DNA of 64,000 nucleotides from Candidatus Heimdallarchaeum aukensis (GCA_021513695.1 CP084166.1:2656001-2720000), one strand, 5' to 3'; positions 16,801 to 35,125 are shown, counted from the first letter of the stretch. The notes: generated by a model from the sequence alone, not told the origin. Numbers and translations are program-made.

Positions 16801-19800
16801 TAGTGATGTCTTCTGTTAAGAAGGTGAGTATATCCCCGACGCCAGAATAAACAAGTTTTAACATTTGTTCTAACTCTAAATCCAAGAAGAATACAGATGA
16901 GAGATACAACTTTGCTTCTTTAAATACATTCATGTTCACTAGATATGGGTATGATTTTCTGATTTCAGACATTCTAGAAATGAAGTCTTGAATTGAATAA
17001 ATCCCTAATTCATGTAATTTTTCTACATATTCACTTGTTATTGATGGACAATTTTCTAGAGGAATTGCAAAACGAAGTCTTTTCTCTTTTAATTCATCTA
17101 AAGATAACAAGTCAAATATATGAAATTCATCATAAATAGGATTGTTTAGAATTTGTGATAATTGTCCTTTTTCAAAAAGAGACAAATCGATTACTGAGTG
17201 AATATCCTGTAATTCTAGTTTCTTTATTTCTTCAAAAGACAAGAAACTAAGAAAAGTTATTGAACCTGATAATATTTCTTTAAATTCTCTATATTTCTCT
17301 TGCTTTAAGATACTGGATGCACCCATTCTTACTCCAGCATAGTACAAAGTTTCTATGTCTGATATTCCTATATCTCGTAATTTAGAAATTTCAGTTTCCG
17401 TGATGAGAGAAGAAGGCATAATAGGGTGAGATCTTGCTTTGTGTAATTCAACAATTTCACTATAAGATAGATTTTCCTTTATTTCATTAATCCTTTTTTG
17501 TGTTTCATTAGATATTTCAGAAAGTTTTTTGGTTGGTGTTGAATAAAAGTCTATTAATGTTGTAATTGAAGATCTGCTAAGAGGAAGAGCAAGATTAACG
17601 TCCAAGTTTAGTGAAGAAATAGGAATAGACAAATCACCTATAAGTTTATCTAAACTATTTTCTTCACCTAGTTTGTTTTTAATTTCCAAGAGAGGAGAGT
17701 TCTCCTCGAATTCAAGTTCAAATAAGCTCCCTAAAGTAATTATAAAGTATTTATTCCTCATATCTTCACTTAAAAGATTGAGAAAAGGTGTAATTCCAAG
17801 TGGTAATTCAAAAACTGAACGAATAAGTGTAATGTTACATTTTTCAAAAGCTAATTGTCTTTCAAATTCGCTGAGGGTTTTTATCAAATCTGTGCTGGAA
17901 ATAACATCAAGTAATGTTAACTCTTCAATATCTTCCAGAATAGTAGAAAAGAAGTCTTTATTGTAAGCAGTTGCAGAAAGAAAATCAAAGTAGTGATAAG
18001 CTCTCAAGTCAATTAATTTAGAAGAATAGTCTGAAACAGTTCTAAATAGCGTTCTATCCGTTAAATCGCTATCTAATATGAATATTAAATGGTAAAGGTG
18101 GGTTATTTGGTTTTGATTAAAAATAGTCAAAGAATAATCTGAAATCTCCTGAAAAATCCGTAAAGGAAGTGATAATATTTTCTTTAATGTGAAAACTTTT
18201 CTCCAGATTGATGAGTTTCTGTCGATGAAAACTTCATCGGGACAGTAGAAAAGTTCTTGAATTGATTGAAATCCTTCATAACTGTAAATTGTTTCTCTAC
18301 TTAGCGTTCTTTGTTCATTTTTGTCAAAAAGTCTAGTTTCATATGCATAGATTGCTCGCGCCTCATATTCTTCTCTTATTCTCTGTGATGTTAAAATGTC
18401 AATTATTTCCTTTGTTTCTTTTGTTGTAATGTTTAGGATATTACTGAGTTTAACAGATGAAGTAGAAACGAAATCAACTATAGTTAATATACCCGCTTTT
18501 CTCAATTCTTCAGTTTGTGAAAAAGAGATATTTGGTAAGAAATAAACAGGGAGACTGAAAAAGTAAAAAATTTCACCAAGATCTAGACTTCTCTTAATAT
18601 TATCAAAACGTTCGTCGGGAATCCCTGTTCTTTCCATTAGAACTTTAGATGACGTAAGTAGAAAACCTAACAATGTATTTATTTTGTTTTTCTTTAAGAG
18701 CTTAATTATATCTGGATCTAACATGTCTGACAAGTGCTTAAATCGTAAATTTAGCACATTTTTTAAATTCTGAACTATCTCCCATGGAATTGTTCTTATT
18801 GCCCATTTTTCTTGCTGAGTAGAAAAGTATAGGTCCTCAATGGTAAAGATGTTGTTAGTTTCTAAAATTTCTACTATCGATGGTCTAAAGATATCAAGTT
18901 CAGAAATATCTGTTCCAGTTTCACTAATCCTGATATTTTTCTTGTATTTTTTAGCTTCTTCTAAATCAATTTTTAAAATAGAAGCGATTGTTTCATCACT
19001 AACAAGGAAAAAGTCAATGATTCTTCTGATTCCAGTTTTTCTTAGAGCATTCAGCTGTTCATGGGATAAGCTTGTTATTTCAATTTCTTCAATTTCTTCC
19101 TCTTGTTTTGTTTCTTCATTTAATATCTTCTTCTTTGTGGTTTTTTCCCAAGTAACTAGCGTCAGGGGAGAACGCAATAGTTTCTTGAATTTTTCAATTA
19201 CACCCCATTTTATTATGGGAGCACCAAAAGTGTAAGGGTGTGTTAAATAAAATAGCTGGTCTATAGAATTGTAACCAATAACAAGTAAAGAACGGATTTC
19301 TTCAGGTGAAAAACGTTCTGAATTTTCAAAATCAAAGGAGATTATTGATTCATACTTACCACTAGATACTTTCTCGTAGAATGGTTGTCCATCTCTATTT
19401 ACATCAAAATTGTTTATTAACTCATCAAAATTCTTCTTTGAAAAATTAAGTATCGTGCTTAATTCATCAAAACTGTAATTTAAAAATTGGTGCAGAGAGT
19501 AAATCTTTTTTGAAGCTAATACTTCATAATCTTTAAGTTTCAAGCTTTTTATACGAGTGATTGGTAATTGCAAAAACTGATAGAAATCAATTATTTCGTG
19601 AGATAACAAAACTTTTTCTGCAAACTCATCAGTATCTTTAAGATTTTTACTATTTATATTGTCGTAGAGTTCAAGTAAAATTTTTTTGTCTTTATTTTTT
19701 GAAATTTCTGTCTCAATAAATACAGGTGTAAGTTGAAGGAAATCTCTTATTGTATTTACATCCTTGGTTTTGAGCTTAAGAAGAGCATCATTCAATGACT

Positions 19801-21732
19801 TTGCTTTAGATTTTGTTGGGGCTAACTTTGCTAAAAATATTAGATCTTCATTCATGAATTCTCTAAAGTTATTCATCTTAGTTAAAAGATCTGAAATCGA
19901 CGGAAGTTCTTCTTCAATATAAAAGTAAAACAACTCTTGTATTGTTGTTTGTTGTTCATTGAATTGCTTAACCAATCTTGGAAAGTGTTTTTTTATTATT
20001 TTTAAATTTCCTTTGTATCTTTCTTTATTTTTTGTAATCTTGTTAGCAGATATACTTTGTTTTAGACGTATAATTTCTTGTTCGTTAAGGTTTAATACCA
20101 AAGAGAGTTCTTTATTACTCCATATTAGAAACCTGCCTATACAGTTTACTCCAATTTCATTCAAAACGTTAATTTTCTCGTTTAGTTCAGGAAAAGCAAA
20201 AATCAAGGGAGTTCGTAATAGTAAGTAATCTGAAACATATTGTTTCTTTGTTTGTTCATCTTTAAATTCAAAATTCTCTGGTTGAGAATATAGAATGTCC
20301 TCTACTGTATAAATTTCATATTTACTTGCTTTGTTCTTCAAAGATAGAAAGTTAGGAATGGGCGTACCTATCTTTTTCTTTATTCTTGCAATCTCGCTTT
20401 TTAATAAACCCATTTCGCGTAATTTTTTCGATGGTGTAATCAAGAATGATGTGGAAGTAAATATCTTGTTTTCTAGCAATTTTTCTTCAGCTTTTTCACT
20501 AATCACTTTTAAGTGTGATAGGTCAAGGTCTTTATTTACTTCATTAAGATGAGAAAGAATGCGAAACTTTGATTCTTCTAATAGACTATCAACAAAAACA
20601 CTTAGTTCTTTTTTCATTAACGTTCTTAATTTAGCGTTTGCATATTGTGCTAAGGTTTCTATATTCGCTGATTTAAGACTGTCTAGTATGTTTTTTCTTA
20701 TATTGTCATCTATGGTTGATATTAGTCCTAGTTTGTTAAGAGGGATAGATCTCTCGCTGTTAGCTAGAATAGTGAAAAATCTAGTATAAATAGAACGCTC
20801 TAATTCTTTGATTTCTAAAAGGTCTTTAGTTGGCGTTTTAAGAAAATTATCTATTGTCTCTATCTTTCTTCTATGAAAAGCATTTTTAGAATATCCATCT
20901 ATCCAATCAGGTTTCATTTTTGTAATGTTGACCTTTAGAAAATCAGGAAACTTTTCTGAAACATGTGAAAATACCTTTTTAACGTAATCAATCAACATTT
21001 CTGTTAAATCATTATCATATTTAAACGAAAAAGGCTCATTGAACTTATAAATAAAATCCTCTAACCCCTTAAACTTATTTGAAAAGTTGGGATAACTTGT
21101 TTTTATATAATTGAAATCTGGATACAGAAATTCTTCTTTTAACTCTGAATAATCAGACATAGTTTCTAAATTAAATTTAAATTCTTCGATAAAGATCGAC
21201 AACTCTACTGTTTCTTGGCCATCTTGAGATTTTGTAACTTCGTTAATTAGCTTAAATTTGTTATCTTCTATTAGACGTTCTACTAAACCTTCAACTAAAC
21301 GCAATTGTGTAGCTTCTGTAGCTAAATAATGATAGCTATTTTGAATCCATCTTTGATATAATGCTTCATTGAAACTACTACTAGTTCCTTGACGTGCAAA
21401 CCTCTTATCTATCATTTTATTTGTTAATGCTTTTAGTGGGAGTTCAGGGCTCAACTTAGACCTGTCTAGTTCATAAATTGTTCTTTGTTTTATTCTTGAA
21501 ACTTCTTTTTTTGAAAGATTCAAAATAGGAGCTAGTTCTGAAACAGGTATGGAAAGAAACTTTCCAATTGTTAAAATATCACTTTTAGCACAACTTTTCT
21601 TGTATTTATCAGGGCACCACACATTAAGTTCAAAAATGGGTGTCCCTAAAGGAACAAAATTTCTAATTTTCTTTTTTGCTCCGTGAGCTAGAGCTGCTGC
21701 AACTTTATATTTTTCTTTATTTATGTTTGTAT
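10811..21732 (-). other. C-terminal extension of the giant protein. A tandem array of degenerate helix-hairpin-helix (HhH)-like DNA-binding motifs (I can see more than 20 by eye). It resembles RNAP alpha-CTD / Topo V style (HhH)2 units.
   Basis: The pattern L..[LIV]G[IVLF].[ST][IV].[DE][LF]......EL..I.GI....A..I recurs. Examples: LRKAGILTIVDFVSTSSVKLSNILNITTKETKEIIDIL; KLHELGIYSIQDFISRMSEIRK; LRDIGISDIETLYYAGVRMGASSIL; LYSLGVFSIEYLYYFPEEFF; LRENGIKNYLDLFENTDVVSNLSPSLRTKIG; LKEIGISSFEELIFAD; LNSLGINTIGEFIAYPTSQLEG. There are no long exact DNA repeats, so the array is ancient and diverged. Confidence 0.55.
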
Positions 21733-23503: not shown

Positions 23504-26440
23504 TTATTTTTTCTTGCGGAACAATTGTTGTTTTACTGGTTCTGGATTAATTGTTAGAGAAGAAACAATTATACCAAGTGTTAGAATAAATAATGCTGCA
23601 AAAGCCCCTCCAGTTCTGTAAGAGTCAGCTCTTCCGATTATTGAGAGGAACTCATCTTCTATTTGTTTAGCAAGGTTATCTGTGGAATATAGGATATCTT
23701 CGAGCCAGAATAAGTTTGCCATGTCTGCAGTAAGTTTTGGATAAGTTTGATGCCATGTTCTGTATTTATATTGAATGTCTTCAGTATCTTCTACAACATC
23801 TTCATCAAGGAATGGATAGTACTCAATATATTGTCCTGCATAAGTGTTGTATTGTACTCTATCTCTTCGTTCAAGAATTGTACCAGTTGTTGGGTCAGTG
23901 AAGATCTGTTGGAAGTGGAATTCATCACGTATAGAACCTGGGAAGGTGTGAGTGATATAAATATCGTCATTCTTCCAATCGGTACCATGAATTTGGTTCC
24001 ATCTTCCTACATGGACGAAACTCTCGTTTAGGTAGTCTGCATACTCTTGCCAGTATAAATCGTATTGATCGACTTGTAGGTAAGGTTGTTGTGTATCTGC
24101 ATAATAAATGTAAGCATCTCTACCATACATGATTGTTTTATCTCTGGCTGAATCAAATATAAATGGACGATAGAAGTACTCAACCCATCTTTGTGTAAAT
24201 CCTCTTTCTGTGTTTGGAGGTAGGACATCTAATCCATAAGTTTCACTAAATGGTTCAAACTGTGTAGTCTTCATTGGCCAATTGTTTAATTGAACAAAAG
24301 AAGCTTTATCCCAAATTTCAACGAATGTTCTTAATTCGTCTCTATGTAAGACATCACTGAATGAACCTGAAGAATAGGTTATGTGTATTAATCCTTTTGA
24401 ACCATCTGCAAGGTAAATGTTTTCACCAGAAGCATAAATATCGTATGCTTCTCCGTCACTATCATAAGTTGCTAAACTTGTTAAGGAATTGACGTTAGAT
24501 GCATCAACTACAATCAAACCATTTTCTCCAGCAGTGAGATATAGCAGATCGTTGTTTTGGTATAGGTTGAAGAATCCACCAGAAACACCAAAGTCATATG
24601 TTCCTATTTGAGTTAAGGTGTTTCCACTAATGGAATAAACAACAAGTCCTAAGGTGTCATCAAGAACATACAGAGTTGTTCCATCTAATAATAACTGAGT
24701 TGCTCCAGTAAGAGAAACGTTTGCTAATGATTCTAATGTAACTGCATCAAAAACTTCTATTCCTCGTCCCTGTTCAACAGCATAGGCTTTTGTTCCATCA
24801 GTTACAACAGCTGTAACAGGAGATTCAGTCTCTTTAAGTGTGTTTAGTGATATGTCTCCTCCATTAGTAGTTGCTTTAGCTAATCCATATTGACCCATAG
24901 CGATGAGCATAAAAGTCTTTGTTGGATTATATTCAAGGTCTAAAGCGTTTATATCTCCTCCATTGGTCCAAACTGTAATTTGGTCAATTTCTGTAAGATC
25001 AGACATATCTAATGAAACTATTCCTTTTTCTCCTGCTGCTACGTATGCAAAATCGCCATATAAACTAGTTTCAAAAGCGATGTCTCTGAAGAAATAACCT
25101 TGTAATCTGTATCCACCAATACCCAAAAACAAGGGGCTGGATGTGTTTACTATTCTAAATCCTCTATTTCCTTCAATAACATAAGCGAATTCGTCATTCA
25201 TTTCAACCTTATAACTTTGAGATTCTTCGAAGGTTGGTATGTTGGCTATTCCAATGATTTCATCAACTTTTGTTATATTATCTCTTCCTGTTTTAACAGC
25301 GTATAATAGGTCTGTTGAAGGATCAACTGAGTCAACTGCAAATGACTGATTAACTAAGAAAGGATATTTTTTTCCGCCGAGGAGTGGATCTTCAACTCCT
25401 GTAACCCATTCTAAAGCTGTTCTTTCACATATGTATGATATCTTGTTTTCATATAACCAGTTTAAAGCAGGTGTACCAGTAAGATATCTGATGTATGCAG
25501 CAAAAGATTGAGCTTGTTCTAGTTCCTCTGGTGTATCGATGTCATAAATTTCTGCTAACTTTTGAGTTACATTAATTGTGAGGATTGAGGGGTCATAGCT
25601 TAACCCTTGGACTAAATCAAGGAAGTACTTCATAGAACCGGCTTCTCCAGTGAATAGAGAATAATCATGACCATCTGCAGTAATTGCATTAAAGAGAATT
25701 TTGTAGGCTGTAGCGCTATCAAAGTTAATATCAGTGTGGTCAGGACGTGAGTTGATCCACATGTGAGGGCTATATTTGATACTATAAATTAGGTCGTTAG
25801 TTTGAGCATATGCCTTATTTAGCACAAGTTTAGCAATCTCACTGTTGTTGTATCCTAAACCTTCTAACTCGCTTCGAATCATAAATCCTGCAACATAAGC
25901 TTGTAAACCATATTCTGAACCATTACCAAAATTTTTCACATAATATGGCCAGAGGTAGTTATAATTGATGATTTTCTCATTACCTGTTAATGTTGAAAGT
26001 GTTTTATTTAAAGTGTATTGTTTCCGTTCGGTGTAAACAACATAATCATTTTCTTCACTATAATCAATTACAAATTTCTTCACTTCTAAGTCAAATACTA
26101 GTTTTCCTGGAATACCTATGTAAGTAATTGGAGTGTTCTTGTACAAGTATGCGTTTCTATCACTTATGTTGTAAAATTCTATATACGTATGAGCGTAATA
26201 ATTACTATCATCAGAGTATTTAGCAACATACATCCAATCAGAGTAATTGTCGCTTCCTCCTTCATAAGGATCAAGATCGTCTTCTGTAATCATACCATAC
26301 TCATTTAGCTTCTCTTCTATTTGATTATTGATTTTAATAGTTTGAATTGGTAACATTACGCCAACTGCGATAGCTGATCCAGAAGTTAAAATTAAAATAA
26401 ATATTCCTAACATTACACGGAATTTTTTCTGCATAGTCAT
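23504..26440 (-). CDS. Large membrane-anchored surface protein with LVIVD/YVTN-type beta-propeller repeats.
   Basis: N-terminal signal/TM (MTMQKKFRVMLGIFILILTSGSAIA) and a C-terminal TM followed by a basic tail (FAALFILTLGIIVSSL...RKKK). Repeated motifs: YAYVAAGEKGIVSLD, LLYLTAGENGLIVVD, NIYLADGSKGLIHI, TLYVLDDTLGLVVY. Confidence 0.6.
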   Translation of the reverse strand: MTMQKKFRVMLGIFILILTSGSAIAVGVMLPIQTIKINNQIEEKLNEYGMITEDDLDPYEGGSDNYSDWMYVAKYSDDSNYYAHTYIEFYNISDRNAYLYKNTPITYIGIPGKLVFDLEVKKFVIDYSEENDYVVYTERKQYTLNKTLSTLTGNEKIINYNYLWPYYVKNFGNGSEYGLQAYVAGFMIRSELEGLGYNNSEIAKLVLNKAYAQTNDLIYSIKYSPHMWINSRPDHTDINFDSATAYKILFNAITADGHDYSLFTGEAGSMKYFLDLVQGLSYDPSILTINVTQKLAEIYDIDTPEELEQAQSFAAYIRYLTGTPALNWLYENKISYICERTALEWVTGVEDPLLGGKKYPFLVNQSFAVDSVDPSTDLLYAVKTGRDNITKVDEIIGIANIPTFEESQSYKVEMNDEFAYVIEGNRGFRIVNTSSPLFLGIGGYRLQGYFFRDIAFETSLYGDFAYVAAGEKGIVSLDMSDLTEIDQITVWTNGGDINALDLEYNPTKTFMLIAMGQYGLAKATTNGGDISLNTLKETESPVTAVVTDGTKAYAVEQGRGIEVFDAVTLESLANVSLTGATQLLLDGTTLYVLDDTLGLVVYSISGNTLTQIGTYDFGVSGGFFNLYQNNDLLYLTAGENGLIVVDASNVNSLTSLATYDSDGEAYDIYASGENIYLADGSKGLIHITYSSGSFSDVLHRDELRTFVEIWDKASFVQLNNWPMKTTQFEPFSETYGLDVLPPNTERGFTQRWVEYFYRPFIFDSARDKTIMYGRDAYIYYADTQQPYLQVDQYDLYWQEYADYLNESFVHVGRWNQIHGTDWKNDDIYITHTFPGSIRDEFHFQQIFTDPTTGTILERRDRVQYNTYAGQYIEYYPFLDEDVVEDTEDIQYKYRTWHQTYPKLTADMANLFWLEDILYSTDNLAKQIEDEFLSIIGRADSYRTGGAFAALFILTLGIIVSSLTINPEPVKQQLFRKKK

Positions 26441-26672: not shown

Positions 26673-27938
26673 TTATCCACTTTTCTTCTCTTCTTCATCC
26701 TCTTTTGAGATGTTCTCTTCTATTAGATAGTATTCCTTCTCAAATAAACTATCACACGAAGATAAGATGGAAGCTCCAATAAGTTCGCCGTCAGAATTGT
26801 ACTCTTTGACGATTATATTGTTTAATATATTAAATGAATCAACAATTTCCTGGGGAATACTAACAAAAGAGAATATTCCTCTAATGATTGTTCCTCTTCT
26901 CTTATCACCGTTTATTGCAAAAAATACATCCTTATTTGAGTACTTTTGTCTAAAAACCTTATAATTTGCAACTGATAGACCTTCGTCTGTTGTTTGAATA
27001 CTAATAAAACCTCTTAAAGGAGGATTGTCGATTTCTATACTTGATGCTAAATTTTCAACTTTCAACAGAACTGTAAAATCATTAATTTGCTCATAAATGT
27101 CATAAGCAACCAAAGAACAAAGACCCTTTGCTTCCTGAAAAATATACAGAAAGTCTGACAAATCATAGGAATAAAAGTCATTCTTTGAGATAGAAGCTGT
27201 TGTAATATCAATTATTATATTCATTACTCTATCTCTAAATTTGTTTTTCAACTCAAGATAATCATTGGAAGGGTTGTTTTCTATTAATTTATTATGATCT
27301 AGTAGGATAAATGGAATTAAGGTATTTTCTAAATTTATTAAATATGAAATGAAACTCAAGAACGAAACTTCAGCATTTAAGTCCTGTTTTCTTAATGGCT
27401 TTTCAAGGATAACTATTGGAGTTTTTCCTTTCTTTTTAATGATGGGTAAGAGATCCATTAACAAACCAAACAGAAAACCATCATTTCCTGCGAAAATAAA
27501 GATAATTGAAGAATTTCCTGTAACATTTTCGATTTTCTGCAAGACCTCAAACTGATTTTCCCTAAACCACTTTTTTCCCAAAGAAAAAGTAGAATTTATG
27601 ATCTCTCTACTAGGTAATCGAATAGAATGATTCTTGTTTTCATATTTGTTCAATATCTCTTCATTAGCTAATAGTAGGGAATTGCATTTTTTTATTCTTC
27701 TTGTAAGAGAAGGATAGAATTCACAGCTTTCTTCTAAAAATAGAAACGCAAAGTCCTTTAGTTTTTCTTCTCCTTCAAAAAACAGGGTATCAGATAACTC
27801 TGAACCAAAAAAAGGTTTTTCATCATTTCTACTATCTGAAATTATTCCCTGAAAATCAAATTTGTATAAAGGATTGAATTTTTGTTTCCTTGTCCCTAGA
27901 ATTGTTTTTTTCCTTTTTAATATTCTTTTCAAACTCAT
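26673..27938 (-). CDS. Divergent FtsZ/tubulin-superfamily paralogue with a degenerate nucleotide-binding T4 loop (putative pseudo-GTPase).
   Basis: IIFIFAGNDGFLFGLLMDLLPIIKKKGKTPIVILEKP aligns with LIIASGGGTGSAGSMIISKIIKDITGESPTIIFIVPEKH of the neighbouring FtsZ-like protein, so GGGTGSAG is replaced by AGNDGFLF. IPFILLDHNKLIEN aligns with CPTILFDNEKLISVD (the FtsZ ...ipNdkLl motif). No N-terminal GxGxxG motif. Confidence 0.45.
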   Translation of the reverse strand: MSLKRILKRKKTILGTRKQKFNPLYKFDFQGIISDSRNDEKPFFGSELSDTLFFEGEEKLKDFAFLFLEESCEFYPSLTRRIKKCNSLLLANEEILNKYENKNHSIRLPSREIINSTFSLGKKWFRENQFEVLQKIENVTGNSSIIFIFAGNDGFLFGLLMDLLPIIKKKGKTPIVILEKPLRKQDLNAEVSFLSFISYLINLENTLIPFILLDHNKLIENNPSNDYLELKNKFRDRVMNIIIDITTASISKNDFYSYDLSDFLYIFQEAKGLCSLVAYDIYEQINDFTVLLKVENLASSIEIDNPPLRGFISIQTTDEGLSVANYKVFRQKYSNKDVFFAINGDKRRGTIIRGIFSFVSIPQEIVDSFNILNNIIVKEYNSDGELIGASILSSCDSLFEKEYYLIEENISKEDEEEKKSG

Positions 27939-28007
27939 TTTGCAACACTTAACGAAACTTCATTTTATATTTTATTTATTGCTTTTTATTTCTATCGAAA
28001 AGCAATT

Positions 28008-29420
28008 TTAATGTTTTCCCGCAAGTACTTCATTGGTGTTGAATACTTGGATTGTATTAGTTTTTCTTGGTATGCCTAAATAGCTTCCTCCTACTAATAC
28101 TACAGTGTCATCATCCTTCAAATGTTCCTCATTAATTAATCGTGAAATACAAGTGTAAACTAGTTGATCATAATCTGTTTCATATGTGTGGAAAATAGGC
28201 TTCACTCCCCAATAGAGTTGTACTCTTCTTAATGTCCTCTTTTCGGGTGTAGAGGCAAATATTGGTAAGTGCAATCTATATTTTGACACCATTTGCGAAC
28301 TATAACCTGTACGAGTAAGAGCAATTATAGCTTTAGCAGAAAGATTCTGAGCAATATCGACAGCTGCTTTTCCTATAGATTCTTCTATGTTTTTAGCTTT
28401 ATACCTTGGAATAAAAGTGAGATCGCTTTTTTCTGCTTCTCTAATAATTTGATCCATTACGTTGATTACAGTAATAGGATGAATTCCTGTAGCAGTTTCA
28501 GCGGACAACATCACTGCATCAGCACCATCAAAAACAGCATGGGCAACATCACTAGCCTCAGCACGAGTTGGGATAGGTTCAATTGTCATTGATTCGAGCA
28601 TCTGTGTAGCAACGATCACTGGTTTTCCAAGTTCCATTCCCATTTGAATATATTGTTTTTGTAAAACTGGCACTCTCTCAGGGCCTATTTCAATTCCTAG
28701 GTCTCCTCTTGCAACCATTAATCCATCACAATTCTTCATGATGGACTTAACGTTATTCACTGCATCAATATGCTCAATCTTTGCAATTATGGGAATATAT
28801 TGAGATGTTGAGGATTTTATTATCTCTTTTATCTTCTTAATGTCTTTGACATCTCTTACAAAACTTATGAAAAGATAATCGACTTCTAAATCACAAGCCT
28901 TTTCAATATCCTTTATGTCTTTTTTAGTTGGCACATGTAAAGTTAAATTTGAATCAGGAACATTCACTCCTTTTCTTGTTGATATTGTTCCGCCATCTCT
29001 AACTACGCATTTAATTAAACTCCCATCAATTTCTAAAACCTCTAGTTTTACTAAACCATCATTAATAAAAATAGGTGAACCCACTTTCACTTCTTTGTAT
29101 AAATCTTTGTAATTAACTGAAAAGTAATTTTTTGTACTTATTATTGATTCATCATTGGTTATTGTTACCTTTTCACCAATTTCTAGTGAAACTGCCTCTT
29201 TAAATTTTCCAATACGTATTTTGGGACCAGCTATATCAATTGCTATTGCAATATTAGGACAATTTTCTCTAATTCTATTAAAAATTGTTTCATGTTCGTT
29301 GTGAGTTCCATGAGAGAAATTTAATCTAGCTACATTCATTCCAGCTTTTTCCATCTTTTTCAGCATTTCTGCAGAATCAGATGATGGCCCAATAGTGCAA
29401 ACAATTTTAGTCATTCTCAA
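28008..29420 (-). CDS. pyk: Pyruvate kinase.
   Basis: MRMTKIVCTIGPSS...ARLNFSHG N-terminus. Conserved PK motifs MVARGDLG and GD....TA. Length 470 aa. Confidence 0.9.
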   Translation of the reverse strand: MRMTKIVCTIGPSSDSAEMLKKMEKAGMNVARLNFSHGTHNEHETIFNRIRENCPNIAIAIDIAGPKIRIGKFKEAVSLEIGEKVTITNDESIISTKNYFSVNYKDLYKEVKVGSPIFINDGLVKLEVLEIDGSLIKCVVRDGGTISTRKGVNVPDSNLTLHVPTKKDIKDIEKACDLEVDYLFISFVRDVKDIKKIKEIIKSSTSQYIPIIAKIEHIDAVNNVKSIMKNCDGLMVARGDLGIEIGPERVPVLQKQYIQMGMELGKPVIVATQMLESMTIEPIPTRAEASDVAHAVFDGADAVMLSAETATGIHPITVINVMDQIIREAEKSDLTFIPRYKAKNIEESIGKAAVDIAQNLSAKAIIALTRTGYSSQMVSKYRLHLPIFASTPEKRTLRRVQLYWGVKPIFHTYETDYDQLVYTCISRLINEEHLKDDDTVVLVGGSYLGIPRKTNTIQVFNTNEVLAGKH

Positions 29421-29637
29421 CTTTAATCGTCTAAGTATTCGTATTTTTACTTAAAAGATTATGCTTGTGTTCTTTCTCCAAATTTGAAAAAACAACCTTT
29501 TTTTGCAAGTGTAACTGTTTCAAAGAATTGATTTTCCTATCTAGAGGACCAATCAGTTATTTTTTTTTAAGAAATCCTAATTTGTTATTGTTTCTCTTGC
29601 GAAAGTTTAAAAATGTAAATTTGCTCTTTTCATTGAA

Positions 29638-30948
29638 ATGGAAGAAAATTCAAAAACTCTTGTTAGTGGGATTAAAGCAAATTTAGTATATCCAGAATCT
29701 AAAGTAAAACCAGTCTTTAATTTTGAAAATATGATAGTTGAACATTATAAACGATTTCCACGAACTGCAGTTTTAATCGAAAATCCAAAATATGCAAAAG
29801 CTCTAATGAACCCTCTAAAATCATTTTATCTAGTACCTATTGCCATTTTCAAAGTCAAATTTAATACTGTTCTCTCAATGAAATTTTGGAATTATATCGC
29901 TTTGTGGTTATACATCCTTATTGTTTCTATTCCTAACTCTGTTTTTATGTATATAACGTTTAGTAGCAACAAAATTTTGGGAGACATAACTTTTTCAGTT
30001 ATTATACCCATGTTGGTTTCATCCCTAGTAGCTCTTTGGTATTTGAAATTTACTCATGATGGTTTCTTTGGATTGATTATAGAGAAAAAAGTTGAATGGT
30101 TAGAAAAGCCTGTAAAAGAATATTATGATAAATATTATGATAAAAAATTTAGCTTAAATATTGTTTTAGTTGTTTTAAGTGTCTTAACATCATTAGGAGT
30201 GGGAATTCCTGTATTAATTTATGCTTCAAGTCAAGGTTTACAATCTGCAATTATATTTGGAGTTATAGGAATGATTTGTAATTTCGTAGTTTTTTATATT
30301 TTCTACTTATCTTTACAATATACTATATTAAACACCAAAATCTATTCTAAAGTATTAAACGCAATAAAAAGTAGAATTGATATCTATCTCAATGAGTATG
30401 GAACTTTGTTAAATAGTGAAAATTACGAAATTATTTGGGCTCTAGGAGATACCCCTGGAAGATCAATAAGGCAGCTTGAAAATATACCCGTGGCTGGAGT
30501 GTTATCTGCGTTAATAGTAACAATTGCCATGTTGATGGGAACAATTAATCAAGCAGTCCTTGGAGTAGTCAAAGGGAATATGCCAACAGTGAATGTATTC
30601 AATTCGCAAATGAGTCTTAACGCAATAATAGCTGCAATCTCCCTAGTTATAGCTATCATAATAGTACTAATTGTTGTTCTTCCATTGTATATCTTCAGTG
30701 GAAAAATGAAGAAATTCAAAATTAAAGCTTTAATAGAACTTGATAACTATATTTTTGCAAATGTAATGGAATTTGAACAACGCTATTCTGAACTTGCAAA
30801 GCAAGAAACAGTAACAATATTTGCTCTCAGAGAGTATATATCGGGTATGAGAACAATTCCTATTTCAGCAGCAAAGATTATCAAAAGTTTAACAGCTGTT
30901 GCAGTATGGTTTGTAAATGTCCGAAAAATAATTAGAGCGTTTAATTAA
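29638..30948 (+). CDS. Polytopic integral membrane protein of unknown function. Likely co-transcribed with the downstream ftsZ-like gene (10-nt gap).
   Basis: About 10 hydrophobic predicted TM segments. No recognisable catalytic motif. Confidence 0.5.
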   Translation: MEENSKTLVSGIKANLVYPESKVKPVFNFENMIVEHYKRFPRTAVLIENPKYAKALMNPLKSFYLVPIAIFKVKFNTVLSMKFWNYIALWLYILIVSIPNSVFMYITFSSNKILGDITFSVIIPMLVSSLVALWYLKFTHDGFFGLIIEKKVEWLEKPVKEYYDKYYDKKFSLNIVLVVLSVLTSLGVGIPVLIYASSQGLQSAIIFGVIGMICNFVVFYIFYLSLQYTILNTKIYSKVLNAIKSRIDIYLNEYGTLLNSENYEIIWALGDTPGRSIRQLENIPVAGVLSALIVTIAMLMGTINQAVLGVVKGNMPTVNVFNSQMSLNAIIAAISLVIAIIIVLIVVLPLYIFSGKMKKFKIKALIELDNYIFANVMEFEQRYSELAKQETVTIFALREYISGMRTIPISAAKIIKSLTAVAVWFVNVRKIIRAFN

Positions 30949-30958
30949 GTGAGGAAAA

Positions 30959-32098
30959 ATGTCGTTCTTAAAGAAACTTAGAAAAAAATCAATAGATATC
31001 GCAGTAATTGCTGTTGGTGACGCAGCTTGTATAATAGGTGCTAAATTTATCCAAAATTTAAAAGAAAATAAGATTAATGTCAAATCTCTGGCAGTGAACA
31101 CAAAGAACAACTTTGGTTCTAAGATTTCTGATCCTTATAATGACAAGTTTTGGTTTGCTGAGCAATATTCTTCTACAAATCGTAATTTAGAATTTGCAAG
31201 AAAGCTTTTAGAAGAAAGAAAAGAGGTTCTAACTGATAAATTGAGGAATGTTGTCTTTTATCGTTTAGATGATAAAAAACGTAAAGAGAAACTCGCTTTA
31301 CATCTTATAATTGCTAGTGGAGGAGGAACTGGTTCAGCAGGTTCAATGATAATAAGTAAAATAATCAAGGATATAACTGGCGAATCTCCAACAATAATAT
31401 TTATTGTTCCTGAAAAGCATGAACCTTCTATTGTTCAATATAACACAGCAACAGCTTTGTTCTATCTAGGATTTGATAGTCTAGGTCCTAATTGTCCTAC
31501 TATTCTTTTTGACAATGAAAAATTAATTTCAGTTGATGAAACTTTGGATATTAAAAAGGCATTGGACTATTGTAATAACTATCTAGCTGATACTCTCTCT
31601 ACTACTATTTTAGCAGCTCTGCAAGAATCATCTCATGAAGAATTTAATGCTGGTTTAAATGATTTCTTCAAATCTTTTAGTTCTGAAGCAAAAGGAATAG
31701 GTGTTATTATCTCTGTCGATAAAACTTTTGAATCGTTAGAAAAAGCACAAAATATTAGGTTTTCTGACATATTCTTCAAAGAATTAGAACTAACATCAAG
31801 TTTAACTGCAGACATTACTAAAGCAAGGTTGGGCTTCCTATCTATTATCGCTCCTCATTCTTATCAGACAACTTTTGAAACCAAAAAGATAGTAAAAAGA
31901 TTCGAAAAAGGGTCAATTAAAGTCTCATTAACAGCTTTAGAAGAGCCTATACTTTTAATACGCGGTGTAATAACGGGGTTGCATCCTGATTTCATTGAGA
32001 GATTTTGGGATATTTTTGAACGGGCTAGAGATTCGAGAAAAGAAATTCTAATCCTAGAAGAGCAAATAAGAAACATGAAATTAGTTTTTTCCAACTAA
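30959..32098 (+). CDS. Divergent FtsZ/tubulin-superfamily GTPase (FtsZ-like). It has intact GTP-binding motifs but a non-canonical C-terminal region.
   Basis: N-terminal glycine box DIAVIAVGDAACIIGAKF...AVNTKNN. T4 signature ASGGGTGSAGS. PTIIFIVPEKHEP (the FtsZ TkPF.fEG region). PTILFDNEKLISVD (the FtsZ ipNdkLl motif). The C-terminal 150 aa is unlike FtsZ. Confidence 0.7.
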   Translation: MSFLKKLRKKSIDIAVIAVGDAACIIGAKFIQNLKENKINVKSLAVNTKNNFGSKISDPYNDKFWFAEQYSSTNRNLEFARKLLEERKEVLTDKLRNVVFYRLDDKKRKEKLALHLIIASGGGTGSAGSMIISKIIKDITGESPTIIFIVPEKHEPSIVQYNTATALFYLGFDSLGPNCPTILFDNEKLISVDETLDIKKALDYCNNYLADTLSTTILAALQESSHEEFNAGLNDFFKSFSSEAKGIGVIISVDKTFESLEKAQNIRFSDIFFKELELTSSLTADITKARLGFLSIIAPHSYQTTFETKKIVKRFEKGSIKVSLTALEEPILLIRGVITGLHPDFIERFWDIFERARDSRKEILILEEQIRNMKLVFSN

Positions 32099-32152: not shown

Positions 32153-35125
32153 ATGAATAGTCTAAATCCAAAGAAGGTAGGTAAAAAGCTCCAAAGGAGA
32201 ATTAAAGGAAAAGTAGTTTGGGACAAAGTTTCTAGATACTTGTATTCCACCGATGCTAGTATCTATAAACTTATGCCCTTGATTGTTGCTCAACCTAAAT
32301 GCACAGAAGATGTCCAAGAAATAGTAAAATTCTGTAATAAACACAAACTTTCTATTCATCCTCGAGGTGCAGGAACAGGGTTGGGAGGACAAGCTTTAGG
32401 AGAGGGCGTGGTAATAGATTTTGCAAGATTTATGCGTAACATAATCGAAATTAACCTTGAAGAAGACTATGTCTGGACTGAGGTAGGAATAAAGGGTGCC
32501 CCCTTACAAAAAAGATTAGGGGAATATAATAAATACATTCCTCCAGATCCAAGTAGTCAAGATTATGCTACCTTGGGTGGAATGATTGCAAATAATGCTT
32601 CTGGCTCTCATTCTGTGAAATATGGTGATTGTGATAAATGGGTAGAAGAATTGGAAGTTGTTCTTGCAGACGGAAATGTAATTCATACTAAAGAATACGA
32701 TATTGAGAGTGAAGAGTTTAAAAGAATATTAGAAAAGGATACACTAGAATCATACATATATAAAAACCTGTTAGAACTTTGGAAAAAGAATGAAGAAAAA
32801 ATAAAGAAAGCTTATCCTCCTGTCCCACATAATGCTACAGGATATGAACTTAGAAAACTGATTTACGACGGAAAAATAAATCTTACAAGGTTATTTGTTG
32901 GTTCTGAAGGTACATTTGGGGTTATAACAAAAGCAAAAATGAGAATCAAGACCAAACCAAAATACAAAGTTCTTTCAACAGTCTATTTTGATGATTTAGT
33001 AAAAGCAGGAAAGGCAATTCAATATATTTTAGAACAAGATCCAGCAGCCATTGAATTACTAGGTAAAAAACTTCTAAATATGGCAAGAGAACGATATCCT
33101 TCTCTAGATAAGAAACTACCTAAAGAATTAGATACGATGCTTTTAGTTGAATTTGAAGGAGATGACTTAGAAGAATGCAAAAAGCTAACTGAAATTACAA
33201 AAAAGAAAGTTACTCAAACTGAAAAACTAGCTTTTGAATTTCTCTCGGCAGAAGATCCTGAAGAACAAGCTAATCTATGGGAAGCAAGAAAGTCTGCTGT
33301 GCCACTTTTGTATAAAATTAAAGGAGATAAGAAAATAATTGCATTAATTGAAGATGCAGTAGTTCCTCCAGAGCATCTAGCAAGATATGTAACAGAATTG
33401 GAGAAAGCTTGTAAAGATCTGGGAGTTGAATTTATTGCATATGGACATGCAGCAAAAGGATTACTACACAATCGCCCTCTAATAGATATGAAAAACCCTG
33501 AAGATATAAAGAAAATGCAAAAGTTAGCAGATAAAAGCTTTGAACTAGTTAAGGAGCTTGGGGGCGCAATAAGCGGTGAGCATTCAGATGGAAGGATAAG
33601 GGCGAAGTATATAAAACCACAATATGGAGAAGAAGTTTTTAATATTTTTAGAGAAGTAAAAAGAACCTTTGACCCTGAAAACATGTTCAATCCTGATATT
33701 AAAGTAATGGCTAAAGAAGATGTTCAAATTAGTAATTTGAAATTTGGAGAAAAATACAAGCCCAAAGCTCATAACACAATTCTAAACCTTGGTTCAGAAG
33801 AATATCAAAGAATCATTGAGACATGTATTGGTTGCGGAAAGTGTGGTATCGACGAACCAATTCTAGTTATGTGCCCAGTATATAAAGGTAAGCCTTACGA
33901 GCACACTTTAACTAGAGGAAAGAATAACATACTCAGAGGATATATTGAAGGAGAATTTACTCTTAAAGAATTACTAGAAAACGATGTCTTTGAGTTTATT
34001 ATTTACAATTGTGTGAATTGTCAGCAATGTATGTATGATTGTCCAAGCGAGGTAGACACAGCTATTTTGATGACAGAAATGAAAATACAATACATGGAAT
34101 ACCATAAACCTACATTGAAAAACCTATTTTCAACAATCAAATTACACAGAACTTTCCATTGGACTTATCAATATTTACGTAATTTTTCACTTGCTAAAAT
34201 AGATCTTATAGGGAAATTGGCATCGATATTTTCTCCTTTCTCTAATTGGATGACTAGTTTTATACTTACTAGATTCGGAATGCATTTGACAATAGGTATC
34301 GATTATAGGAGAAAGATGCCAGCTTTCCAAAGAAAGACATTCGTTAAATGGTGGAAGAAGCATCAAAAAACAGCTAATGCTGAAGAACCAAAGAAAGAAA
34401 AACTAAAAGTCGTTTATTTCCATGGTTGTTCAGCAAATACGATTACACCTGAAGTAGGAAAATCAACTGTTGAATTGTTAGAAAAACTAGGTGTAGAAGT
34501 TGTTGTACCTCCACAAAAATGCTGTGGAAGTCCAGCTTATTCTTATGGTGCTAAGAGTGTTCTAGATAAAAATGTTAAATTCAATTTAGATAGCTTAAGT
34601 CAATATTTAGATGATGGTTGTGATGCAATTGTTACTAGTTGTACTAGTTGTTCTCTTGCTCTTAAAAGTGAATATAAACATATAACTAACAATGAGAAAG
34701 CATTGAAGGTTTCTGAAAAAACCTTTCTTACTACTGAATTTGTTGATAAACTATTAAAAGAAAATAAGCTGGATGTTGAATTCAAGCCAGTTAAAGCTAA
34801 AGTACTCTATCATACATCATGCCACTTAAAAGCACAAAGAGAAATTACAACTATTTCTTTTGATCTCCTCAATAAAATACCAGAACTCGAAGTGGAAAAA
34901 GGTCCAAATACTTGCTGTGGTGTTTCTGGAAGTTGGGGAATGAAAAAAGAAAATTACTACGCTTCAATGAAAATCGGACATTGGCTTTTTGATTCTGTAA
35001 AACAAGAAGATATTGATGTTGCTGTCACAGATTGCCCAACTTGTAAAATGCAAATTGAGCATGGAACATCTAAAGAAGTTGATCATCCAGTGATTCTTCT
35101 TTACAAGTCAATAACTGTTAAATAA
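32153..35125 (+). CDS. FAD-linked oxidase (GlcD/D-lactate dehydrogenase-like). Fused to a C-terminal 2x[4Fe-4S] ferredoxin domain plus two CCG domains (GlcF/GlpC/HdrD-like).
   Basis: FAD_binding_4-type motif HPRGAGTGLGGQALG. CIGCGKCGIDEP...CP and CVNCQQCMYDCP cluster motifs. CCG motifs KCCGSPAY and NTCCGVSGSWG. Length 990 aa. Confidence 0.75.
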   Translation: MNSLNPKKVGKKLQRRIKGKVVWDKVSRYLYSTDASIYKLMPLIVAQPKCTEDVQEIVKFCNKHKLSIHPRGAGTGLGGQALGEGVVIDFARFMRNIIEINLEEDYVWTEVGIKGAPLQKRLGEYNKYIPPDPSSQDYATLGGMIANNASGSHSVKYGDCDKWVEELEVVLADGNVIHTKEYDIESEEFKRILEKDTLESYIYKNLLELWKKNEEKIKKAYPPVPHNATGYELRKLIYDGKINLTRLFVGSEGTFGVITKAKMRIKTKPKYKVLSTVYFDDLVKAGKAIQYILEQDPAAIELLGKKLLNMARERYPSLDKKLPKELDTMLLVEFEGDDLEECKKLTEITKKKVTQTEKLAFEFLSAEDPEEQANLWEARKSAVPLLYKIKGDKKIIALIEDAVVPPEHLARYVTELEKACKDLGVEFIAYGHAAKGLLHNRPLIDMKNPEDIKKMQKLADKSFELVKELGGAISGEHSDGRIRAKYIKPQYGEEVFNIFREVKRTFDPENMFNPDIKVMAKEDVQISNLKFGEKYKPKAHNTILNLGSEEYQRIIETCIGCGKCGIDEPILVMCPVYKGKPYEHTLTRGKNNILRGYIEGEFTLKELLENDVFEFIIYNCVNCQQCMYDCPSEVDTAILMTEMKIQYMEYHKPTLKNLFSTIKLHRTFHWTYQYLRNFSLAKIDLIGKLASIFSPFSNWMTSFILTRFGMHLTIGIDYRRKMPAFQRKTFVKWWKKHQKTANAEEPKKEKLKVVYFHGCSANTITPEVGKSTVELLEKLGVEVVVPPQKCCGSPAYSYGAKSVLDKNVKFNLDSLSQYLDDGCDAIVTSCTSCSLALKSEYKHITNNEKALKVSEKTFLTTEFVDKLLKENKLDVEFKPVKAKVLYHTSCHLKAQREITTISFDLLNKIPELEVEKGPNTCCGVSGSWGMKKENYYASMKIGHWLFDSVKQEDIDVAVTDCPTCKMQIEHGTSKEVDHPVILLYKSITVK

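Follow-up and report, generated by a model that had tools for sequence, protein, structure and literature searches.

A conserved, apparently undescribed CetZ-like gene module with a degenerate paralogue and a membrane protein in Heimdallarchaeia

What two diverged tubulin/FtsZ-superfamily proteins, one of them without its nucleotide-binding motifs, might do beside a membrane protein is the question raised by a locus of the Heimdall-group (Asgard) archaeon Candidatus Heimdallarchaeum aukensis. The locus lies in a 64,000-nt stretch of DNA (GCA_021513695.1, CP084166.1:2656001-2720000), referred to here as the window. Both ORFs reported in a preliminary description of this DNA were present, protein A at 30959-32098 on the plus strand and protein B at 26673-27938 on the minus strand. 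A pyruvate kinase gene (28008-29420, minus strand) and a membrane protein (TM) gene (29638-30948, plus strand) were located between them, also as described. No canonical FtsZ or further tubulin-family ORF was found within the 64-kb window. The TM gene, the intact A gene, and the dead-site B gene apparently constitute a conserved module that has been undescribed so far, and the three products probably form a membrane-attached cytoskeletal system.

Protein A and the adjacent membrane protein

Protein A was composed of 379 residues and was a CetZ-like member of the tubulin/FtsZ superfamily with intact GTP-binding and T7 motifs. Of the nucleotide-binding elements listed in the preliminary description, T1 (AVGDAACIIG), T4 (GGGTGSAG, residues 121-128; 31319-31342, plus strand), T5 (VPEKHEP), and T6 (LFDNEKLI, residues 183-190; 31505-31528, plus strand) were recovered. 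The T4 signature was near-invariant in 72 A-family sequences, and no other G[GA]G[TAV]G-type motif occurred in any of the six reading frames of the window. The T6 motif, with the family consensus LFDNEKL, resembled the DNEA motif of tubulin. An extra element, missing from the earlier list, was the T7 loop with the start of the H8 helix, FNAGLND(235)FF (31643-31669, plus strand). Residue 235 was acidic in 72 of the 72 unique A sequences, Asp in 71 and Glu in the other, and matches the D-L-x-[DE]-F pattern of alpha-tubulin E254 and FtsZ D212. The T7 catalytic positions of A, B, and C, the counterpart of B in a sister family, were placed by alignment and motif pattern.

The T1 loop of the window's A was AVGDAAC in place of the family consensus GVGNAGC, a departure found in 3 of the 72 unique sequences. 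Because this loop is atypical, A is described as a putative GTPase on the basis of its motifs. The PF00091 score of the window's A was 31.3 bits, under the gathering cut-off of 33, and a precomputed PF00091 match was present in 54 of the 56 relatives listed. The C-terminal part had been considered unlike FtsZ or tubulin; this view was rejected, as the C-terminal halves were ordinary tubulin/FtsZ C-domains and the fold was not novel. The statement that A and B are not canonical FtsZ1 or FtsZ2 agreed with an NCBIfam ftsZ (TIGR00065) score of 15.6 bits against a cut-off of 295.2, and the Pfam FtsZ_C model gave no match.

The TM protein (436 residues) contained six TM helices predicted by hydropathy, rather than the roughly ten first proposed, with both termini inside and about 256 conserved cytoplasmic residues. 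Lys and Arg residues were distributed 41 inside and 2 outside, the long inside loops were the most conserved, and nearly all of the conserved mass was cytoplasmic. No Pfam family was found in 10 members, and no transporter, channel, or enzyme family signature was detected in the TM protein; one weak match to SLATT_4 was obtained (E=1.4e-3). Orthologues with 23-68% identity were present in the modules of both Heimdallarchaeaceae and Kariarchaeaceae.

The stop codon of the TM gene and the start codon of A were separated by the 10-nt spacer GTGAGGAAAA (30949-30958, plus strand), which contained a Shine-Dalgarno-like GAGG, so that the junction reads TAA-GTGAGGAAAA-ATG and the reported gap was correct. 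The gap between the two genes as called in related loci was 1-2 nt. These short gaps imply that the two genes would be co-transcribed and their translation coupled. The TM gene was directly 5' of A in 36/36 genome-derived loci and in the 12/12 metagenome loci extending far enough, and the tight coupling of the active copy to a membrane protein thus held, with its Shine-Dalgarno-like spacer, in every locus examined. Upstream of the TM gene, a divergent AT-rich intergenic region of 217 nt, read directly from the sequence (29421-29637), separated it from the pyruvate kinase gene on the minus strand. The sequence TTTAAAAA, located about 25-32 nt 5' of the TM ATG, is a possible archaeal TATA box.

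Proteins A, B, and C opened with a similar basic-hydrophobic peptide, with a net charge of +4 to +8 in the first 16 residues. The peptide of A was MSFLKKLRKKSI (30959-30994, plus strand; family consensus MSWLKRKLFKKK), and that of B, of the same type, was MSLKRILKRKKT (27903-27938, minus strand). The peptide of A is a putative membrane-targeting or partner-binding element; OdinFtsZ1 is held to the membrane by an N-terminal amphipathic helix (PMC12583498).

Protein B as a degenerate paralogue of A

Protein B (421 residues) was a paralogue of A with the tubulin/FtsZ fold and a degenerate nucleotide pocket. The superfamily T4 signature GGGTG[ST]G, present in A as GGGTGSAG, was absent from B. At this position, the window's B had AGNDGFLFG (residues 150-158; 27465-27491, minus strand), aligned to GGGTGSAG of A and G[AS]GGTGVG of C, and it had no glycine box, exactly as first described. 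A GGxTG motif was found in 0 of 34 unique B sequences, and T4, T1, and the DN motif were missing from 34/34. By sequence, B is therefore a pseudo-GTPase in all 34 members. The T7-equivalent of B, FYSYDLSD(262)F (residues 255-263; 27150-27176, minus strand), contained an invariant Tyr256 and a conserved Asp259. Asp at position 262 was limited to the window's lineage (4 unique sequences); most other B proteins had Asn there.

The raw similarity between A and B was weak (BLASTP E=0.014, 22% identity). When the A-family profile was aligned with a B-only profile by hhalign, the probability was 98.2% over 301 columns (E=3e-14), and through the intermediate clade C the E-values were 1e-32 (C-B) and 8e-37 (C-A). 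The core relationship of A and B noticed earlier was thus borne out far beyond chance. The AF2 model of B (pLDDT 88.6, pTM 0.89) matched TubZ (1.6e-15), FtsZ, and CetZ in Foldseek over 320-356 columns with E-values of about 1e-15 to 1e-13, which placed B in the tubulin/FtsZ fold and not in an unrelated one. The two-domain organization of this fold, an N-terminal Rossmann-like nucleotide-binding domain, H7, and a C-terminal domain, was present.

With all nucleotide-binding motifs gone and no match in Pfam, NCBIfam, or PDB sequences, even with the B-only profile, B might be taken for a decaying pseudogene. This is hardly conceivable and was refuted, as 34 unique sequences (25-74% identity) all had a full-length ORF and shared 21 invariant columns, its dN/dS of 0.155 indicated purifying selection, and its AF2 model was confident. 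B was represented by 28 clusters among 1.84 billion proteins, and its evolutionary rate was 3-4 times that of A.

Distribution and relationships of the family

B was located within a few kb of the TM-A pair in 29 of the 33 assessable Heimdallarchaeaceae-type loci. It was inverted or relocated beside A in L001, L008, L020, and L031, being directly downstream of A in L008, and was missing from the locus in AB_125, YT1_002, L049, and L017, so that the association of A with the TM protein can apparently persist where no B is adjacent. In Kariarchaeaceae, including Heimdall LC_2, the three genes formed a tight C-TM-A' operon, in which C corresponded to B and had intact GTPase motifs, with Glu as the T7 catalytic residue in 21/21 sequences. 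The linkage of the two paralogues therefore extended beyond the genome of the window. In the metagenomic lineage L051, T4 was degenerate in both paralogues. The proposal of an active and an inactive partner holds for the lineage of B but not as the design of the module; it is a lineage-specific state, because both copies are motif-intact in the sister family and both are degenerate in L051. The double loss in L051 suggests that the module may be able to do without GTP-driven polymer dynamics.

The order giant Topo VI-B, LVIVD, B, pyruvate kinase, TM, A was collinear across related genomes, and much of this long-range synteny could be plain collinearity. The pyruvate kinase (470 residues; Pfam PK, E=2e-108, and PK_C, E=4e-31) adjoined the module or was at most two genes away in most Heimdallarchaeaceae loci, and was likewise near it in every Kariarchaeaceae-type locus that included upstream sequence; both orientations occurred. 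It is a persistent neighbour of the module. The LVIVD-repeat gene (23504-26440, minus strand), encoding a 978-residue protein with hydrophobic N- and C-terminal segments (Pfam LVIVD, E=1e-8), adjoined B in most Heimdallarchaeaceae loci and was absent from Kariarchaeaceae modules. Because its conservation as a neighbour is confined to Heimdallarchaeaceae, it is doubtful that this gene belongs to the module.

A crude NJ tree, in which CetZ was represented by only two references, placed A, A', B, and C in a clade of their own (80% bootstrap) on the CetZ/tubulin side, apart from the FtsZ references (100%) and not nested within the two CetZ references; the grouping of A, B, and C with CetZ received 0%, and that of B with C 39.5%. 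The family is monophyletic in this tree and, by structure and sequence, closest to CetZ, and is distinct from FtsZ, from tubulins and AtubAB, and from Asg.Tub. Full-length tubulin similarity including Tubulin_C, as in OdinTubulin, AtubA/B/C, and Heim-alpha/beta-tubulin, was not found. Membership of the FtsZ-like-1/2 family (Tubulin_2, PF13809), also considered at the outset, received no match at E<=1 for A or B. The FtsZL1/2 (Tubulin_2) family is reportedly that of Makarova and Koonin from 2010, and the CetZ clade is said to have been delimited by Brown and Duggin in 2023.

CetZ proteins are reportedly the archaeal tubulin-superfamily cell-shape proteins of Duggin and co-workers from 2015 (structures 4b45, 4b46, and 3zid). 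They are the closest structural and sequence relatives of the module family, although the identity is only 16-19%. Among solved structures CetZ was closest, the nearest match being the GTPgammaS-bound CetZ protofilament crystal form. CetZ occurs in Euryarchaeota, whereas the module family occurs in Heimdallarchaeia. CetZ proteins control archaeal cell shape (PMC9856176). The module proteins come as a fixed pair with a dedicated 6-TM protein, and one of the two is a pseudo-GTPase; neither feature is described for CetZ in PMC9856176 or PMC9871819. The latter paper (Santana-Molina et al. 2023) reported Asg.Tub, a non-canonical CetZ-like Asgard group for whose C-terminus no known Pfam model gives a match. 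Asg.Tub (OLS26264.1, PWI48967.1, KXH77455.1, and OLS30664.1) is a different family, with about 455 residues, T1 GLGECGSN, and T4 GGGTGCGG. With the HMMs of A, B, and C, the scores of OLS26264.1 were 5.6, 1.4, and 8.4 bits, lower than those of CetZ and archaeal FtsZ, and the module family accessions OLS32748.1 and OLS29073.1 were absent from the data files of PMC9871819.

Possible organization of the module

The reading that we prefer, and to which we give roughly an even chance, is a Heimdallarchaeia-specific chromosomal three-gene, membrane-anchored CetZ-like module in which the second subunit became a pseudo-GTPase. A would be made from the same transcript as the 6-TM protein, with B, or C in the sister family, as the second paralogue. 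A would bind GTP and build head-to-tail protofilaments, and Asp235 of its T7 loop would trigger hydrolysis in the next A. Attachment of the filaments to the cytoplasmic side of the membrane would come from the conserved cytoplasmic face of the TM protein, from the short basic-hydrophobic N-terminal peptides, or from both. B, with the tubulin fold and the T7/H8 face kept and the pocket gone, would join A assemblies as a non-exchanging, non-hydrolysing subunit, perhaps as a filament-end cap, a nucleator, a stabiliser, or a bridge to the TM protein, and would tune assembly without driving it. Given the atypical T1 of the window's A and the Asp at T7 of its B, the detail of a non-activating cap fits most relatives better than this genome. 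A nucleotide-dead tubulin/FtsZ-fold paralogue that regulates an active polymer-forming one has a likeness in ARC3, a plant chloroplast division factor whose FtsZ-like domain is reportedly without GTPase function. ARC3 differs in being eukaryotic, fused to other domains, not related by descent, and without a linked membrane protein gene.

An obligate A-B heterodimer, assembled into an alternating heteropolymer with the GTP of A buried, structural, and non-hydrolysed as at the N-site of tubulin, is a less favoured arrangement, which we regard as fairly unlikely. As in alpha/beta-tubulin, BtubA/B, and AtubA/B, two paralogues are encoded together in each module, and the Kariarchaeaceae operon is like the AtubAB and BtubAB pairs. 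The T7/H8 motif D-L-x-[DE]-F is common to A, C, and alpha-tubulin. In tubulin, Lys254 of the beta subunit faces the non-hydrolysed GTP of alpha-tubulin, so that one subunit is non-catalytic to its partner, and most B proteins have Asn at the same T7 position. The analogy with alpha/beta-tubulin drawn at the outset stands for this non-acidic residue, but not for the pocket, which is gone in B and kept in beta-tubulin, nor for the window's own B, which has Asp. In a strictly alternating polymer, moreover, the acidic T7 residue of A would face the empty pocket of B and its conservation in 72/72 sequences would be unexplained; it has a substrate only if A contacts a GTP-bearing subunit, which points to another A. 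B is also absent from the locus in some genomes, its rapid evolution is unusual for an obligate stoichiometric partner, and the family is CetZ-like, not tubulin-like.

It is unlikely, too, that the tubulin-fold proteins serve the 6-TM protein as peripheral subunits or regulators, for example as a GTP-sensing switch or scaffold on a membrane complex, with a largely vestigial polymer ancestry. The TM protein is indeed the most constant partner, with a conserved surface nearly all cytoplasmic; the module persisted when B once lost its GTP-binding signatures and when both L051 paralogues apparently did so too, and the persistence of pyruvate kinase as a neighbour hints at a link to metabolism or nucleotides. 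However, A retains all elements of head-to-tail assembly and hydrolysis, including T7 in 72/72, its fold is closest to a CetZ protofilament form, and no transporter, channel, or enzyme signature could be detected in the TM protein. It appears quite unlikely that A and B now have unrelated functions, with B an old duplicate in a non-cytoskeletal role kept near A by inherited gene order. The opposite strand of B, the housekeeping gene between B and TM-A, a possible promoter of its own, its absence in four loci, its fast evolution, and the collinearity of the flanking giant Topo VI-B, LVIVD, and pyruvate kinase genes would suit such a history. Against it, several inversions and the L008 move have left B no more than a few kb from TM-A, C, its counterpart in the sister family, shares an operon with TM and A', B and A have the same type of N-terminal peptide, and the T7/H8 region of B, a longitudinal interface, is still conserved. 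A TubZ-like (type III) DNA-segregation system of a mobile element is very improbable, although Bacillus TubZ/RepX was the top HMMER and Foldseek match of both the A and the B+C profiles and shares a long C-terminal helix with the module proteins. TubZ/RepX serves plasmid or phage partition with TubR and a centromere, whereas the module is chromosomal and conserved class-wide, and its partner is a membrane protein. No TubR-like gene was found among the adjacent conserved genes, no relatives of the module proteins were found in viral contigs or plasmids, and PADLOC gave no match.

For the membrane-anchored CetZ-like module, the analogy with CetZ suggests that its role in Heimdallarchaeia may be in cell shape or membrane organization.

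Gene organization and motifs of protein A

The locus in the window contained two tubulin/FtsZ-superfamily genes. Paralogue B (26673-27938, minus strand; 421 aa), listed as "uncharacterized" in UniProt, was followed by the genes of pyruvate kinase (PK; 28008-29420, minus strand), a membrane protein (TM; 29638-30948, plus strand; 436 aa), and the CetZ-like protein A (30959-32098, plus strand; 379 aa), which UniProt names "Tubulin/FtsZ GTPase domain-containing protein". TM and A were joined by the spacer TAA-GTGAGGAAAA-ATG with a Shine-Dalgarno-like GAGG, and the called TM and A genes lay 1-2 nt apart in related loci. The NCBI protein MHA1115368.1 was identical to B, and the 90%-identity cluster of B included UJG40516.1 of Ca. 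Heimdallarchaeum aukensis. The G+C content of the window was ~31%, and no tRNA, Rfam family, canonical ftsZ, or third tubulin-family ORF was found within the 64 kb.

Protein A matched the Pfam Tubulin model at residues 14-191 (E=3e-7) with 31.3 bits against a curated cut-off of 33. With the FtsZ equivalog model, for which the cut-off is 295, it scored 15.6 bits, in agreement with the preliminary description, in which A was not a canonical FtsZ. The word-indexed search gave 56 relatives of A, almost all of 379-382 aa, with 53-62% identity, and from Heimdallarchaeota. Five loop motifs were near-invariant among 72 unique sequences of the A family: T1 (G[VI]GNAGC), T4 (GGGTGSAG), T5 (PEKxE), T6 (LFDNEKL), and T7 (xADLxDFF). 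The A protein of the window had AVGDAAC in T1 (residues 17-28) in place of the family GVGNAGC, with two Gly-to-Ala and one Asn-to-Asp replacements, and this type of T1 occurred in 3 of the 72 sequences. The first Asp of T7 was replaced by Gly, and Asp235 at the catalytic position was retained. Of the GTPase motifs earlier ascribed to A, T4, T5, and T6 were present and T1 was atypical.

Protein B, clade C, and placement of the family

Neither the single B sequence nor a 16-sequence B-only profile gave any match in HMMER searches against Pfam, NCBIfam, and PDB sequences, and BLASTP between A and B was marginal (E=0.014). Homology was therefore based on profile-profile comparison, an intermediate clade, and structure, and BLASTP was not relied upon. 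The A profile was aligned by hhalign with the B-only profile over 301 columns covering both domains, with a probability of 98.2% and E=3e-14. Exhaustive HMMER of 1.84 billion representatives recovered 28 relatives of B, compared with 2 by word-indexed search; the nearer ones shared the degenerate motifs of B, and the farther ones formed the intermediate clade C. The AF2 model of B (pLDDT 88.6, pTM 0.89) matched TubZ, FtsZ, and CetZ over 320-356 columns. On these three lines the homology of A and B is secure, and the membership of B in the tubulin/FtsZ superfamily, proposed earlier, was upheld against an unrelated fold.

B is a real gene. Its ORF was full length in 34 unique sequences of 25-74% identity with 21 invariant columns, and these features, together with the confident AF2 model and the dN/dS value, led to the rejection of a pseudogene. 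When the window was compared with Ca. H. endolithica, dN/dS was 0.037 for PK, 0.041 for A, 0.065 for TM, 0.078 for the neighbouring LVIVD gene, and 0.155 for B. B was the fastest-evolving gene of the neighbourhood, yet constrained, with an amino-acid identity of 74% compared with 94% for A (to the protein of strain PR6). The catalytic position of T7 was Asn in most B proteins and Asp in the B of the window. Current databases give B as "hypothetical" and without a domain; its annotation as a tubulin-fold pseudo-GTPase is now justified.

Clade C was found in Kariarchaeaceae, including Heimdall LC_2 (OLS29073.1, auto-annotated as "Tubulin-like protein CetZ"). Its members were 413-454 aa long, with intact T1 (GGAG), T4 (G[AS]GGTGVG), T6 (IDN), and T7 (DLNEF), and the C profile resembled that of B at E=1e-32 and that of A at E=8e-37. 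In Kariarchaeaceae, C, a full-length TM orthologue (23-25% identity), and the A-like protein A′ (~30% identity to A) were arranged in this order in one tight operon. In B and C, but not in A, the first strand was preceded by an N-terminal extension of 55-60 residues, and an extra β-hairpin region was present at the C-terminus. Because these features were shared and B and C never occurred in one locus together, B is the probable Heimdallarchaeaceae counterpart of C, with the nucleotide pocket lost.

A third, divergent state of the module was seen in a metagenome locus, L051 (contig Ga0256835_1000578, 5661-9476). Its C-like protein had GSDSIGVG at T4, and its A-like protein had SSGTFSSG at the T4 position and an Asn as the catalytic-position residue of T7, so that both tubulin-fold proteins look degenerate in their motifs.

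A crude neighbour-joining (NJ) tree was calculated with reference sequences that Santana-Molina et al. 2023 give in their supplement. The FtsZ sequences of E. coli and B. subtilis served only as outgroups and queries in other comparisons. A, A′, B, and C formed one clade (80% bootstrap) on the CetZ/tubulin side, and the split from FtsZ was 100% supported. Within the clade, bootstrap values were 39.5% for B+C and 59% for A+A′+C. B was basal when the A/B/C tree was rooted with FtsZ, which is probably long-branch attraction; therefore, the orthology of B and C rests on architecture and synteny and is given as probable.

Membership of A in "Asg.Tub", the CetZ-like Asgard group with members OLS26264.1, PWI48967.1, KXH77455.1, and OLS30664.1 (PMC9871819), was rejected, as Asg.Tub scored 1-8 bits with the A, B, and C HMMs. 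The accessions of the A/B/C family were absent from the data of Santana-Molina et al. 2023 (PMC9871819) and from all searchable paper texts, and the AB_125 and LC_2 proteins auto-annotated as "CetZ" were not among the datasets of that study. In this CetZ-like branch of the tubulin superfamily, which is specific to Heimdallarchaeia, three genes make up a module with a dedicated membrane protein, and in Heimdallarchaeaceae the second paralogue is now a pseudo-GTPase.

Membrane protein and gene neighbourhood

The TM protein was composed of six transmembrane segments, about six hydrophobic segments being found instead of the roughly ten of the preliminary description. The two termini and the even-numbered loops (2 and 4) together contained 41 Lys and Arg residues, and the odd-numbered loops (1, 3, and 5) contained 2, a distribution that places both termini in the cytoplasm under the positive-inside rule. 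The cytoplasmic parts (36-85 residues each, ~256 in total) were the most conserved regions, and the conserved motifs of the protein were FxFE, KFTHDGF, NTRIY, GRSIRQLENIP, and KFKxKALxELDxYIF. The external loops (7-16 residues) were poorly conserved. No similarity to known families was detectable; matches to SLATT_4 (weak, E=1.4e-3) and ASFV_J13L were discarded, as they were not reproduced across family members. This layout suggests that the TM protein is a platform on which cytoplasmic partners gather, and not a transporter or a receptor.

A, B, and C each began with a short peptide (for example, MSWLKRKLFKKK, MSWLKSILSRRKK, and MAKRSLFGFLKR, respectively) containing hydrophobic residues; over the first 16 residues, the net charge was +4 to +8. 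Because this peptide was kept between paralogues otherwise ~20% identical, it suggests a shared target, which may be the membrane or the TM protein. In OdinFtsZ1, an N-terminal amphipathic helix tethers the protein directly to membranes (PMC12583498). CetZ1 was dropped as a precedent for such a helix, as the CetZ1 paper describes an amphipathic M-loop.

Gene order was compared among 36 loci of genome origin (GTDB and public assemblies) and 14 more metagenome loci fetched with TM as the bait. TM was directly upstream of A in 36/36 of the former, and A followed TM in all 12 metagenome loci that reached far enough. Of the 33 loci with enough flanking sequence for a judgement, 29 had B within a few kb, in most cases divergent from TM-A and either separated from it by PK or not. 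B was inverted in three loci (L001, L020, and L031) and lay directly 3′ of A in a single case (L008, TM-A-B). B was not at the locus in Heimdall AB_125 (L030), YT1_002 (L027), L049, and the rearranged L017; in the first three, the LVIVD gene abutted PK and no B was found within the fetched flanks.

The LVIVD β-propeller-repeat protein of the window (23504-26440, minus strand; 978 aa), with hydrophobic segments at both ends, is probably a surface or envelope protein. Its gene adjoined B in most Heimdallarchaeaceae loci and was absent from the Kariarchaeaceae modules. Farther upstream was a 4184-aa ORF (10811-23365, minus strand) with topoisomerase VI subunit B at its N-terminus (Topo-VIb_trans, residues 352-518, E=3.5e-57; HATPase_c, residues 38-135, weak), adjoined by a 468-aa ORF (9395-10801, minus strand). 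Topo VI-B usually has about 530-600 aa. The fusion had ~3600 further residues with helix-hairpin-helix-type matches (RAD51D_N and RNA_pol_A_CTD) and was kept at ~4170-4340 aa across all Heimdallarchaeaceae loci. LVIVD and the fusion were collinear with the module only within Heimdallarchaeaceae, which may reflect plain shared ancestry.

In Heimdallarchaeaceae as in Kariarchaeaceae, PK adjoined the module or lay at most two genes from it, and its orientation varied (the window, L006, L037-L040, L051, and L053), and the other flanking genes differed between the two families. The persistence of PK may come from a gene order shared by descent or from a tie of function, for example the local regeneration of GTP. 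Directly downstream of A was a 990-aa FAD-linked oxidase fusion (32153-35125, plus strand) with FAD_binding_4 and FAD-oxidase_C, a 4Fe-4S dicluster domain, and two CCG domains; its gene was likewise 3′ of A in L002, L014, L022, and L041. In Kariarchaeaceae, a soluble 659-707 aa protein of no known family was encoded beside PK and the C-TM-A′ operon (L006 2404-4383, L037 4059-6182, L038 5603-7585, and L040 4297-6282). Its four copies shared 24-64% identity, and it had no counterpart in the window. An anti-phage defence system was rejected, as PADLOC gave zero matches.

Proposed assembly and its significance

By its motifs, A would keep all that is required to bind GTP and to activate its hydrolysis in an adjacent subunit. 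The T7 acidic residue of A is invariant, which would need a GTP-bearing neighbour, another A; homopolymers of A are therefore favoured. They would hydrolyse GTP and be held at the membrane by the co-translated TM protein, the N-terminal peptide, or both. B, with no nucleotide face of its own, would dock on the GTP face of A without firing the GTP and may act as a cap, nucleator, or stabiliser, or as a bridge to the membrane protein. This role suits B because its fold and T7/H8 face are kept, the pocket is lost, and T7 mostly carries Asn. The chance is about even that the three proteins act together at the membrane, in a tubulin-like assembly to which B belongs as a non-catalytic accessory subunit. 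The Asp in the B of the window and the missing adjacent B in some genomes are caveats to this reading, and so is L051, which suggests that the module can persist after the loss of both signatures.

An obligate alternating heterodimer of A and B would recall α/β-tubulin, since the T7 Asn of B is the kind of change that stops β-tubulin from triggering GTP hydrolysis in α-tubulin. It is doubtful. That A and B are regulators of the membrane protein, with its conserved cytoplasmic parts, and do not form filaments is quite improbable, and the functional independence of B from A, which lacks an adjacent B in a few loci and has one in most, is less probable still. A TubZ-type partition system or mobile element is improbable, as the locus lies on the chromosome and is conserved, no relatives were found in viral contigs or plasmids, and the adjacent conserved genes (PK, the six-pass membrane protein, and LVIVD) are not TubR-like.

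No paper describing the module, its membrane partner, or the pseudo-GTPase was found among searchable open-access texts. New relative to this literature are a distinct CetZ-like subfamily confined to Heimdallarchaeia, a cognate multi-pass membrane protein in the same operon as a candidate for membrane coupling of an archaeal tubulin-like polymer, a series of active/active, active/dead, and dead/dead states in related lineages, and an annotation for the B family. The series of states is a ready comparative experiment on a tubulin-fold protein after the loss of GTP binding.

In a bolder and rather unlikely reading, Heimdallarchaeia would have their own membrane-anchored tubulin machine, separate from FtsZ and AtubAB, with two paralogues and a six-pass receptor. 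One paralogue would have become nucleotide-free independently in Heimdallarchaeaceae and would work with the GTPase as a heterodimer or end-cap in shaping or organizing membranes. If true, the scheme of α/β-tubulin, in which one subunit is catalytic and the other is not, would have arisen a second time by convergence. Eukaryotes are thought to branch from Heimdallarchaeia, and Asgard tubulin-superfamily proteins are studied for the origin of the eukaryotic cytoskeleton. The hosts of the module are near kin of the eukaryotic ancestor, and their tubulin-like proteins have an explicit link to a candidate membrane receptor. If A and B co-assemble, the module would offer a tractable model in a prokaryote of the origin of non-catalytic tubulin subunits.
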